Shown here in pieces: positions 40,462 to 43,623 of a stretch of 64,000 nt of DNA. Source of the DNA: Candidatus Woesearchaeota archaeon (GTDB taxonomy: Archaea; Nanobdellota; Nanobdellia; SCGC-AAA011-G17; JAGVZY01); NCBI GenBank assembly GCA_018302225.1, contig JAGVZY010000007.1, forward strand, positions 13,700-77,699, given 5' to 3'. The notes under the pieces are model-generated. The model ran no database searches. It was not told the DNA's origin and worked only from the letters and a program-made list of their open reading frames with translations. Within the stretch, counting starts at the first letter, position 1, and every line of letters begins with the position of its first letter. A program made the translations under genes and the position numbers.

Positions 40462-41584
40462 AATGGTAAACAAAATATTAACTGGTGCAGAAACCAGTGC
40501 AGAAGCAATGCGTCAAATAGCCCCAGATGTAGTTTCAGCCTATCCTATCACTCCTCAAACCCATATAATTGAAAAATTCTCAGAATTTATTGCAGATGGT
40601 TTAATAGACACAGAATTGATTAGAGTAGAATCAGAACATAGTGCCCTAAGTGCTTGTGTTGGTGCTTCAGCAACAGGTGCAAGAACAATGACTGCAAGCT
40701 CATCAGCAGGCTTAGCCTTAATGTTTGAAATATTAGGAGTTACCTCGGGATTAAGACTTCCAGTAATTATGAACATTACAAATAGAGCATTATCTTCACC
40801 AATAAATATTCATTGTGATCATTCAGATTCTATGAATTGCAGAGATTCTGGTTGGATTCAAATATATTCTGAAAACTGTCAAGAAGTTTATGATTTCAAT
40901 TTAATAGCAGTAAAACTTGCAGAGTCGATAAATCTTCCAGTAATGATCATGCAAGATGGTTTTATTGTTTCTCATGGTGTGGAAAATTTATGCATTCTAG
41001 AAGACAAAAAAGCAAAATTATTTATAGGAAATTATAAACCAAAGTTTTCTTTACTTGAATTTAAAAAACCGAAAACCTTTGGTGCCTTACAACTAACAGA
41101 CTATAATTTTGAAACAAAAATTCAAATTTCGCAAGCAATGGAAAAAGCAAAACAAAAATATTTAGAAATTTCAAAAGCATATTCAAAAATCTCAGGAAGA
41201 AATTATAATTTCTTTGAATATTATGGAAATAAAAATACAAAAGATGTAATTGTGGCTTTATCTTCAACAGCAGGAACAATAAAAAGTATGATTGATGAAG
41301 GTTTAAATCTTGCCCTATTAAAAATTAACTTATTTAGACCATTCCCCCATGAAGAAATAAAAAATATTCTAAAAGATAAAAAAAGAATTATAATCTTAGA
41401 TCGTTCAGAAAGCTATGGTTCTTATCCACCCCTATATTCAGAAATCAAATCTGCACTTTATGATCTAAAAGAAAAACCTGAATTAATAAGTCATGTATTT
41501 GGAATTGGTGGAAGAGAAATTTACAAACAAGATATAAAAAATATTTTAAATAATTCAAAAAAATATATAGGTGTAAGAGAATGA
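40454..41584 (+). CDS. porA: POR alpha subunit
   Basis: Full-length match to POR alpha pattern; overlapping starts/stops with neighbours. Confidence 0.85.
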   Translation: MNKMVNKILTGAETSAEAMRQIAPDVVSAYPITPQTHIIEKFSEFIADGLIDTELIRVESEHSALSACVGASATGARTMTASSSAGLALMFEILGVTSGLRLPVIMNITNRALSSPINIHCDHSDSMNCRDSGWIQIYSENCQEVYDFNLIAVKLAESINLPVMIMQDGFIVSHGVENLCILEDKKAKLFIGNYKPKFSLLEFKKPKTFGALQLTDYNFETKIQISQAMEKAKQKYLEISKAYSKISGRNYNFFEYYGNKNTKDVIVALSSTAGTIKSMIDEGLNLALLKINLFRPFPHEEIKNILKDKKRIIILDRSESYGSYPPLYSEIKSALYDLKEKPELISHVFGIGGREIYKQDIKNILNNSKKYIGVRE

Positions 41585-43623
41585 AAGATTTAACAATAAA
41601 AGAACTGGCTCAAAAGGATACTCAGTTTATATCAGGGCATAGAGCTTGTGCGGGGTGTGCATTCCCAATTATCGTGAAAACTATTCTCGCATCAACAGAT
41701 AAAAAAGTAGTTGTCTGTGCTGCAACAGGTTGTTTAGAAGTTGTCTCAACAATTTACCCTTATTCTTCATGGAAAGTTCCATTTATTCACAGTGCATTTG
41801 AAAATGCAGGTGCAACAATTTCAGGTGTAGAAACTGCATTTAAAGCATTAAAGAAAAAGGATCCAAAATTAAAAAAAGAAGACGTTAAATTCATTGCCTT
41901 TGCTGGAGACGGTGGATCTTACGACATTGGACTTCAGTCTTTATCAGGAACATTAGAACGTGGGCATGATATAGTATTTGTAGTTTATGACAATGAAGCT
42001 TATATGAATTGTCTAAGCTTAGATAGCCTAATTATGACTAAAGAAGGGTTAAAAAAAGTAATGGATGTTAAAGTTGGAGAATTGATCTATGCTTTTGATG
42101 AAAATGCTCATAAACTGATTACTAAAAAATGTATAGGTAAATTTAATAATGGTATTAAAAAAGTGTATGAACTTAACACATTTCATCATTCAATAAAAAC
42201 AACAGATAATCACCCTTTTCTAATATTAAAACGAAATGGGCGAGGTAAAAAAGCTCAATTTATTTGGAAGAAATTAAAAGATTTAAAAGTAGGCAATGAA
42301 ATTATAACTTTAAAGAAAATAAATAATGAAAAAAGTTTCAGTTTTGATAAAATAAAAATATCTAAAAAAGGAGATTACAAAGTAAATAAAATAAATGAGA
42401 TAAATTTACCAAAAATAAGTTCTACAAATTTAATGGAATTTTTAGGATTATATATGGGCGATGGATGGATAAGAGAATCTAAGGCAGAAGTAGGTTTTGC
42501 ACTACCCCGCAATAAAAAAGGGCGCGAGAGGTTAATAACTCTCTATAAAAAAATATTTAATATATCGCTTAAACCAAAAGATAAAAACTATGTTTATATT
42601 TATTCTTTAAATTTAGTAAGATTTATAGAATCTTTAAAATTTAATAAAGGTGCAAAAAATAAAATAGTGCCTGCTTGGATATTCACTCTGCCACTTAAAG
42701 AAAAAGAAGCTTTTATACAAGGATTAATGCTTTCAGATGGATATCAAATAAAAAATAGTAAAAGATATATATCTGCGAGCATCGATCTTTTAAAAACCTT
42801 AAGATTACTTCTGCAAACCTGCAATTATAGAGTAGGAAAAATACATTTACAAAAAAAATTAAAAGGAACGCATGTAGTTTATAGAAAATTGTTAAAAGAT
42901 TCTACTTATGGTTATATCTGTTTTAGTAAAAAAAAGAGGTTATTAATTGATAAATATATCTCTCAAACAAAACAAAAAGACTTTTTTGCAGGAAATAAAA
43001 ATTTTGGAACTGAAAAAATAATTTCTATTAAATTTATAAAAGAAGAATCAACAATTGATTTAAGTGTTGAAGGAGCACATAATTTTATAGCCGACGGAAT
43101 TGTAGTCCACAATACAGGGGTTCAAGGATCAAGTTCAACTCCTTTCGGTGCTACAACTACAACAACACCAGATGGAAAAATTCATCATGGTAAAGAACAA
43201 ATCAAAAAGAATTTAATGGAAATTGTAATCGCACATAAAATACCTTATGCTGCACAAGCAAGTGTCTTTGATTTGGAAGATCTTTCAAGAAAAGCAAAAA
43301 AAGCATTTGAAACAAAAGGCCCTAGTTTCTTAAATGTTTTATCACCCTGTAATTTAGGTTGGAAACATCCACCAAACATAACAATTACAATTGCAAAACT
43401 AGCAACAGAAACAAATTTCTGGCCATTATATGAATATGAAAATGGAAATTATATCTTAAATTATAAACCACAAATTCAAAAGAGTGTAAATTCTTATTTA
43501 AGACTTCAAGGTAGATTTAAGCACCTTTTTAAACCAGAAAATAACTTACTTCTTGAAAAACTGCAAAAATCAACTGATGAACAGTGGGAAAAACTGTTAA
43601 AAGTCTCTAAAAACCTTAAATAA
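41581..43623 (+). CDS. porB: POR beta subunit (TPP-binding) interrupted by a 368-aa intein
   Basis: CAGCAFP cluster-ligand motif, GDG-x25-N TPP motif; exteins sum to about 312 aa, typical PorB size. Confidence 0.85.
   Translation: [680 protein letters not shown]
42010..43113 (+). mobile_element. intein with LAGLIDADG homing endonuclease, inserted right after the conserved Asn of the PorB TPP motif (...YDNEAYMN|C...VVHN|TG...)
   Basis: N-terminal Cys, C-terminal His-Asn followed by Thr. Two LAGLIDADG motifs: [10 protein letters not shown] and [12 protein letters not shown]. Confidence 0.8.

Follow-up and report, generated by a model that had tools for sequence, protein, structure and literature searches.

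The 64,000-nt stretch of DNA analysed here (the window; Candidatus Woesearchaeota archaeon, contig JAGVZY010000007.1, positions 13,700 to 77,699 of the forward strand) carries a porB gene, encoding the beta subunit of pyruvate:ferredoxin oxidoreductase (PFOR), whose open reading frame (ORF) holds an in-frame insert of 1104 nt, and the locus raises the question of what this insert is and how it could have come to lie in such an enzyme. We consider it very probable that the insert is a class 1 intein with a LAGLIDADG homing endonuclease, placed in the porB gene of a woesearchaeotal porG-D-A-B operon. The kind of element is already known, a canonical intein; what is new, as far as the literature searched extends, is its host and site, in PorB between the residues equivalent to Asn996 and Thr997 in the Desulfovibrio africanus PFOR. 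Conservation is given below over 120 intein-bearing protein clusters at 90% identity (from a search with the full precursor, and a lower bound for the family) and over 81 genome copies, namely the window and the best 80 of 209 related stretches from a scan of one genome per Genome Taxonomy Database (GTDB) species. The parts of the precursor gene are:

41581..43623, forward strand: porB precursor gene, an ORF of 680 codons plus stop (N-extein, intein and C-extein) encoding 680 aa.
41581..42009, forward strand: N-extein, residues 1-143, with the Fe-S ligands C23, C26 and C51, the thiamine pyrophosphate (TPP)-binding motif GDG(109-111)...N138 and, as its last residue, N143.
41905..41994, forward strand: TPP-binding motif GDG-x26-N (G109 to N138), with coordinates taken from the translation; D110 and N138 correspond to Asp963 and Thr991 in the alignment with 1b0p.
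42010..43113, forward strand: predicted class 1 intein of 368 aa (residues 144-511) with an embedded LAGLIDADG homing endonuclease, from Pfam Intein_splicing, PDB matches, the structural model and comparison with an empty allele.
42010..42012, forward strand: codon of Cys1, the block A nucleophile (Cys144), invariant in 120/120 clusters and 81/81 genome copies.
42202..42213, forward strand: block B, T-x-x-H (T208-D-N-H211), with T208, N210 and H211 invariant in 120/120 clusters and the T and H in 81/81 genome copies.
42412..42984, forward strand: homing endonuclease domain, approximately intein residues 135-325, with both LAGLIDADG helices, from the secondary structure of the model and Foldseek matches to I-DmoI and intein endonuclease domains.
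42442..42471, forward strand: LAGLIDADG motif 1, residues 288-297, with the catalytic Asp294 (Asp in 118/120 clusters).
42715..42750, forward strand: LAGLIDADG motif 2, residues 379-390, with the catalytic Asp386 (Asp in 118/120 clusters; the Asp pair in 80/81 genome copies).
43003..43113, forward strand: C-terminal splicing region, blocks F and G, ending in His510-Asn511, from NCBIfam intein_Cterm and alignment with the Npu and Ssp DnaB inteins.
43114..43623, forward strand: C-extein, residues 512-680 plus stop, with Thr512 (+1 nucleophile, nt 43114-43116) as first residue and the fourth Fe-S ligand, C590 (C222 in the spliced protein).

The residues expected of a splicing intein are retained throughout the family. 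Cys at position 1, the T-x-N-H of block B, the terminal His-Asn and Thr at position +1 are invariant in all 120 clusters, every one of the 81 genome copies keeps Asn followed by Cys1, the Thr and His of block B, and His-Asn followed by Thr+1, and in blocks F and G residues D493, H500, H510 and N511 do not vary among the 120 proteins, the intein ending in VVHN before the Thr. Since Cys1 is invariant and block F has Asp493 rather than Cys, we assign the insert to class 1; class 3 was rejected on the same two residues. A preliminary description of this DNA had already proposed a LAGLIDADG intein here, and its coordinates for the ORF, Cys144 (nt 42010), His510-Asn511 (ending at nt 43113), Thr512, the 368-aa insert and the two LAGLIDADG motifs were all reproduced; the alternative that it named, a conserved non-splicing domain lacking the terminal Cys or His-Asn, was not what we found, as Cys1, His-Asn and Thr+1 are present in 201/201 sequences. 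Thr at the +1 position is also invariant in intein-free PorB.

Profile and structure searches agree with this assignment. Pfam Intein_splicing matches residues 158-511 (E 1.1e-13; 51.8 bits against a cut-off of 35.8), NCBIfam intein_Cterm scores 31.2 against a cut-off of 15.6, and the sequence matches of the insert in the PDB are inteins only (Npu and Ssp DnaB, VMA inteins and PI-PkoII). According to an AlphaFold (AF2) model built with 12 family members as input (pLDDT 87.7, pTM 0.85), the insert is a HINT fold with a two-helix LAGLIDADG endonuclease. A Foldseek search of the PDB returned TliVMA (7qsu) as top match (E 2.3e-22, TM-score 0.71) and further full-length matches to PhoVMA, PI-PkoII, PI-SceI and PI-PfuI, whilst mini-inteins matched the splicing domain alone and I-DmoI the endonuclease domain alone. 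No second intein was found among all six-frame ORFs of the window using a hidden Markov model from the PorB intein alignment.

Group I introns also encode LAGLIDADG endonucleases, and HINT folds occur in bacterial intein-like (BIL) and Hedgehog-type (Hog) domains as well, to which the model gave weak Foldseek matches (2lwy, 6y75 and 1at0). We nevertheless regard both alternatives to a true intein, an element acting at the RNA level (a group I or II intron that encodes an endonuclease) and a BIL/Hedgehog-type HINT domain, as of practically negligible probability. Within nt 41000-44300 not one Rfam family, intron or otherwise, was matched at E <= 1, and the insert is in frame, free of stops and bounded by Cys1 and by His-Asn followed by Thr. 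Canonical inteins match it over their full length at E 1e-22 to 1e-12, as against approximately 1e-4 for BIL and Hog domains. BIL domains are not known to have a conserved +1 nucleophile and occur in variable or secreted proteins, in contrast to the invariant PorB site, and Hog domains are followed by a sterol-recognition region; a BIL or Hog assignment was rejected because His-Asn and Thr are invariant, the host is a cytoplasmic enzyme interrupted where it is most conserved and the structural matches are far weaker.

Deletion of residues 144-511 leaves a 312-aa PorB, which aligns with no gap across the junction to the solved structures 9bt4_C (PorB, E 8.6e-79), 5c4i_C (oxalate oxidoreductase beta) and 1b0p (D. 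africanus PFOR, with domain VI aligned), as expected from the earlier claim that removal of the insert would restore a colinear PorB. The Pfam TPP_enzyme_C match on the 680-aa protein is broken into two stretches, and the TPP motif and C23, C26, C51 and C590 are conserved in the window PorB. The best NCBIfam match of the spliced extein is PorB (NF008819) at 374.7 bits, and, as this falls short of the equivalog cut-off (405), a related specificity, for another 2-oxoacid rather than pyruvate, is possible.

The empty counterpart of this allele can be read directly. The best 120 relatives in a search with the spliced extein are all intein-free proteins of 299-313 aa, many of them from Woesearchaeota, and the closest among the matches listed (P0271) is 84% identical to the window extein. 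When the window was compared by blastn with the contig of that allele (L081), the matching blocks ended at 42008 and resumed at 43110, bracketing the 1104-nt intein exactly, with 51/60 bases around the junction identical; the empty porB site in L081 reads GTAGTCTATGATAATGAAGCCTATATGAAT|ACTGGAATTCAAAGATCCAGTTCAACCCCT, where the bar is the intein insertion point. The nearest intein-bearing PorB proteins listed, on the other hand, have exteins at most 66% identical to that of the window. Because the closest extein relatives are empty whilst the intein-bearing exteins are this distant, presence or absence of the intein does not track host relatedness.

The NCBI label of the 680-aa protein, which is only 'hypothetical protein' of Candidatus Woesearchaeota archaeon, could be taken to suit a non-splicing domain or dead intein in a porB that is disabled or is an assembly chimera. 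This we hold to be very improbable. The splice residues are all intact and invariant, no stop interrupts the reading frame in the window or at any of the 80 genome loci, and the exteins of intein-bearing alleles are under strong purifying selection (ratio of nonsynonymous to synonymous divergence, dN/dS, 0.03-0.13). The identical 680-aa protein (P0001) is moreover found on 18 contigs of several independent metagenome assemblies from different samples, with the same gene neighbours and as the only porB of an intact operon, and an assembly artefact was rejected on this ground.

The insertion site was located by alignment with 1b0p, the numbering of the D. africanus PFOR being derived by counting along the alignment and adding one for the absent initiator Met. 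D110, N138, N143 and T512 then correspond to Asp963, Thr991, Asn996 and Thr997, and C23, C26, C51 and C590 to Cys812, Cys815, Cys840 and Cys1071, which we take to be the ligands of the proximal [4Fe-4S] cluster; these ligands are divided 3+1 by the intein (C23, C26 and C51 before it, C590 after it). The sequence YDNEAYMN spans residues 136-143 and the intein follows directly after N143. The preliminary description had it right after the Asn of the TPP motif; the placement inside the TPP-binding domain stands, but that Asn is N138 and the intein lies five codons further on. Its larger point, that the intein occupies a catalytic hot spot of PorB, is if anything strengthened, as the site lies after the Asn996 equivalent. 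Asn996 of the D. africanus PFOR lines the pyruvate pocket and rotates on pyruvate binding, and the matching residue of the Sulfolobus 2-oxoacid:ferredoxin oxidoreductase influences substrate specificity (PMC5020499). N143 is present in 120/120 intein-bearing relatives and has a frequency of 1.00 in intein-free relatives; across the 12-residue block over the junction the majority residue has a mean frequency of 0.92 among 120 intein-free relatives, with the N, T and G of the junction at 1.00. With the intein in place, the Asn of the substrate pocket is cut off from the conserved TG(I/V)Q stretch, and because of this separation and the 3:1 split of the Fe-S ligands the precursor should be inactive, making splicing obligatory for PorB activity. 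Beside the active-site segment the window protein has two unusual substitutions: Gly516 (nt 43126-43128; R516G in NTGIQ-R-SS), where 119/120 intein-bearing and 97% of intein-free relatives have Arg, and Val135 (nt 41983-41985), where 114/120 intein-bearing relatives have Cys.

For an intein of this class at this site we propose the following sequence of events, modelled on the established class 1 pathway. The 680-aa precursor would be translated and, through an N-to-S acyl shift of Cys144, the bond joining it to Asn143 would become a thioester, after which the hydroxyl of Thr512 would attack this thioester (transesterification), Asn511, assisted by His510, would cyclise and free the intein, and an O-to-N shift would produce a native Asn143-Thr peptide bond. 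The products would be the 312-aa PorB and a free 368-aa intein with endonuclease activity, and the latter would cut intein-free porB at the conserved ...GCC TAT ATG AAT|ACT GGA ATT CAA..., whereupon repair would copy the intein into the cut allele (homing). Homing into intein-free porB is our proposed reason for a spread of the same allele that is patchy and yet very wide.

How wide it is can be judged from the family counts, which do not bear out the earlier suggestion of a rare insertion. The same PorB site is filled in at least 120 clusters, all of 647-702 aa, and, across both domains, in no fewer than 80 species-representative genomes, the best 80 of the 209 GTDB stretches all being open, full-length precursors, and hundreds of copies are already in public databases, some under the automatic JGI name 'POR beta subunit/intein/homing endonuclease'. 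The archaeal hosts, by depositor label, are Woesearchaeota, Nanoarchaeota, Iainarchaeota, Ca. Forterrea (a complete genome), Heimdallarchaeota, Bathyarchaeia and Methanophagales, and the bacterial hosts Omnitrophota (including a single-cell genome), Aerophobetes, Cloacimonadota, Patescibacteria and Vermiphilus; in wider terms the same allele is found in DPANN, Asgard and ANME-1 (anaerobic methanotrophic) archaea and in candidate phyla radiation (CPR) and Dependentiae bacteria. The domain of the hosts was checked by flanking genes on the same contig, such as DnaX and RecR in L016 and ComEC and Dxr in L041, the window porB being flanked by a KH/beta-CASP nuclease and a proteasome subunit. In L041 (3713-5686, reverse strand; Cloacimonadota) the intein-bearing porB adjoins the ComEC/Rec2 DNA-uptake gene, which is probably a coincidence, though a notable one for an element apparently moving between phyla. 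Clustering of a library at 50% identity reduces the PorB intein family to approximately two full-length clusters. Its nearest non-PorB relatives, at approximately 30-36% identity, are inteins of SufB, T4-like portal proteins and a subtilase (P0124, P0130, P0136, P0137, P0142 and P0144); one T4-like phage portal protein carries two, and a phage host is a conceivable vehicle for intein spread. Two inteins are present in the PorB of a Nanoarchaeota metagenome-assembled genome (KR13_N2.mb.68; L064:132-3155) and in P0129. The second intein, of approximately 340 aa, lies inside the TPP motif (FAGDGG|C...SLNGN|SYDIG), starting with Cys and ending with Gly-Asn before a Ser, so that PorB has at least two intein insertion sites.

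That an intein should be so well conserved might suggest that it is kept for the benefit of the host, as a conditional-splicing switch through which redox state, oxygen or a cofactor gates PFOR maturation, perhaps via Cys1 and Cys41. Were this so, strict anaerobes (DPANN, Asgard, CPR and Omnitrophota) would gain post-translational control of a central oxygen-sensitive enzyme, and both the conservation of the intein and its retention after repeated cross-domain transfer would be accounted for. The position at the active site, with the Fe-S ligands split 3+1 and the precursor expected to be inactive, speaks for such a role, as do the Cys at intein position 41 (C184), invariant in alignment A2 and at least 90% conserved in alignment A1, an unusual degree of conservation of the whole intein with a nearly constant length, and the fact that its nearest non-PorB relatives are SufB inteins. 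A mycobacterial SufB intein is reportedly sensitive to oxidative stress. We think a switch improbable all the same: recent horizontal spread together with selection for homing would account for the conservation just as well, the closest PorB relatives do without the intein, and with Thr as the +1 residue the known Cys1-Cys+1 disulfide trap is impossible.

The divergence of inteins and exteins bears on the question of mobility. Between phylum-level groups the inteins are 53-73% identical and the exteins 41-61%, whilst within Heimdallarchaeota the extein is the better conserved (84%, with the intein at 77%). A faster-evolving intein, as in Heimdallarchaeota, is what vertical descent would produce, and between phyla the order is reversed. 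Among cross-domain pairs the intein is the more conserved in 552/598, the most extreme being a DPANN archaeon and a Cloacimonadota genome with inteins 80% but exteins 47% identical. Synonymous divergence (dS) and dN/dS were calculated by the Nei-Gojobori method, dN/dS being given where dS was measurable. For the Heimdallarchaeota pair L038/L042 the extein dS was 0.47 and the intein saturated, for the Cloacimonadota pair L039/L041 the extein dS was 0.99 and the intein dS 0.25-0.40, and for the Aerophobetes pair L032/L033 the values were 2.6 and approximately 0.95 respectively. In relatives of the window intein dN/dS was 0.04-0.09 for the splicing (HINT) region and 0.04-0.16 for the endonuclease region, compared with 0.03-0.13 for exteins. 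Taken together, the identities, the discordant dS values and the endonuclease dN/dS indicate that the PorB intein family is probably homing actively, and the same signatures point to transfer of the intein between domains.

Two inteins at the same site depart from the full-length form. P0128 (607 aa) has an intein of approximately 306 aa in which both LAGLIDADG Asp residues are replaced (FLGIFIASGQL and LIKGMTNTNGV), and that of L048 (Ca. Subteraquimicrobium carltonvillense) measures approximately 326 aa, with an internal deletion of approximately 40 aa in the endonuclease domain. Both resemble inteins in the decay phase of homing. A homing cycle predicts that sites will be found empty, filled or decayed, that divergences will be discordant and that the endonuclease will be under purifying selection, as observed here.

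Several observations weigh against reading the window intein as a splicing and homing member of such a family. Both splicing and DNA cleavage we infer from sequence for every family member, the window copy included, and the tests of mobility are distance-based (identity and dS), not tree reconciliation. The nearest neighbour belongs to the same phylum-level group in 40/49 cases, therefore jumps between phyla would be occasional, not rampant, and an IMG/VR scan with the intein alignment returned distant inteins only (at most 31% identical over their full length) and no PorB-type allele. For the window copy, Pfam LAGLIDADG_3, annotated in many homologues, scores 21.6 bits, just below its cut-off of 22.5, and NCBIfam intein_Nterm 22.5, just below 24.5. 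Identical copies aside, the next best intein among the matches listed is only 69% identical, and selection on the window copy itself is not measurable for this reason. Among the 148 near-invariant intein columns it deviates at 10, where the other copies have a median of 4 (rank 9/120), although none of the ten is catalytic and the number is within the family range; the block F substitutions S495 and A499 align with Thr and with Pro or Leu in DnaB inteins. At 25.2% GC, compared with a window mean of 29.0%, it ranks at the 4.8th percentile among stretches of equal length and falls within the range of the other genes (24.6-34.1%), giving no compositional sign of recent arrival.

The divergence at these columns, a composition ameliorated to that of the host genome, the decayed inteins at the same site (P0128 and L048) and the predominance of nearest neighbours from one phylum-level group would all be in keeping with an intein that still splices but whose endonuclease is dead in this genome, a fixed vertical passenger late in the homing cycle. 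Such a state is a serious but, in our estimation, somewhat unlikely alternative, given that the window copy retains D294, D386 and the two LAGLIDADG helices, that its intein is of full family length (366-372 aa) and that in its relatives purifying selection acts on the endonuclease region no less strongly than on the splicing region.

The intein-bearing gene is the last of an intact porG-D-A-B operon that contains no other porB. The genes upstream of it, which complete a four-subunit PFOR, are:

39635..40174, forward strand: porG/porC, gamma subunit of the four-subunit pyruvate:ferredoxin oxidoreductase (Pfam POR, E 8.9e-36; NCBIfam PorC_KorC, 164 bits, above cut-off).
40180..40461, forward strand: porD, delta subunit, 2x[4Fe-4S] ferredoxin-like (Pfam Fer4 families; NCBIfam PorD_KorD, 101.8 bits, above cut-off).
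40454..41584, forward strand: porA, alpha subunit (Pfam POR_N, E 1.8e-70, and PFOR_II; best NCBIfam match PorA_Arch).

The porA stop codon and the porB start overlap (ATGA). The porA ORF taken from TTG at 40454 (376 aa) overlaps porD, whilst gene callers on identical contigs place the start 9 nt downstream (373 aa). Directly downstream of the operon, on every contig of this organism, lies a gene for a PduL-type phosphate acyltransferase (43675-44256, forward strand; Pfam PTAC, E 1.1e-55), and its position beside the por genes suggests a route from pyruvate through acetyl-CoA to acetyl-phosphate in this DPANN archaeon.

According to published surveys, inteins reside mostly in proteins of replication and repair and in ATPases. 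In its main text the 2016 survey (Novikova, PMC4760082) mentions no PFOR, pyruvate or thiamine, and we found no description of a PorB intein in the portion of the literature covered by searches for intein together with PFOR, ferredoxin oxidoreductase, 2-oxoacid, Woesearchaeota or DPANN, a scope that excludes InBase and survey supplements. Within the same limits this is consistent with the impression of the preliminary description that PorB is not a catalogued intein host. The PorB intein leaves existing knowledge of how inteins work unchanged. Its interest lies in a canonical intein family that occupies the active site of an enzyme central to the carbon and energy metabolism of anaerobes, and in a natural tracer of DNA exchange among uncultivated, often ultra-small or symbiotic microbes of anoxic groundwater and sediment. 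In practical terms, 'hypothetical protein' labels at NCBI mean that metabolic reconstructions can miss a functional PorB, and the intein would add a Cys1/Thr+1 splicing element from mesophilic anaerobes to protein-engineering toolkits.

Compared with known inteins, the best full-length structural matches are TliVMA and PhoVMA of the A-type ATPase subunit A (7qsu, 7qss and 7qst; E 2.3e-22 to 1.5e-19, TM-score 0.64-0.73). Like the PorB intein these combine a HINT splicing domain with an endonuclease insertion bearing two LAGLIDADG motifs, occupy a cofactor- or nucleotide-binding site of an essential enzyme and can be detected by sequence; they differ in being only 18-20% identical and in occupying the P-loop region of an ATPase as opposed to the TPP/substrate site of PorB. 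PI-SceI (yeast VMA1), PI-PfuI and PI-PkoII (Foldseek E 1e-15 to 1e-12) share the bipartite architecture and class 1 chemistry at 12-14% identity, but for these proteins splicing and DNA cleavage have been demonstrated, whereas the PorB intein is known from sequence and model; PI-SceI has an additional DNA-recognition region, and the +1 residue of the PorB intein is Thr. The Ssp and Npu DnaB mini-inteins (1mi8 and 4o1r) provide the best sequence matches in the splicing blocks (TxNHxFL in block B and DLxVxGxHNFxAxxIxVHN in blocks F/G), although they are without an endonuclease domain and reside in a bacterial replicative helicase. The SufB inteins (P0124, P0136, P0142 and P0144), which are the nearest non-PorB relatives in a representative library of 1.84 billion proteins (32-36% identity over the full 368 aa), resemble the PorB intein in having an Fe-S-related, non-replicative host, whilst their host protein and site are different and their identity to it is far below the 55-69% observed within the PorB family.

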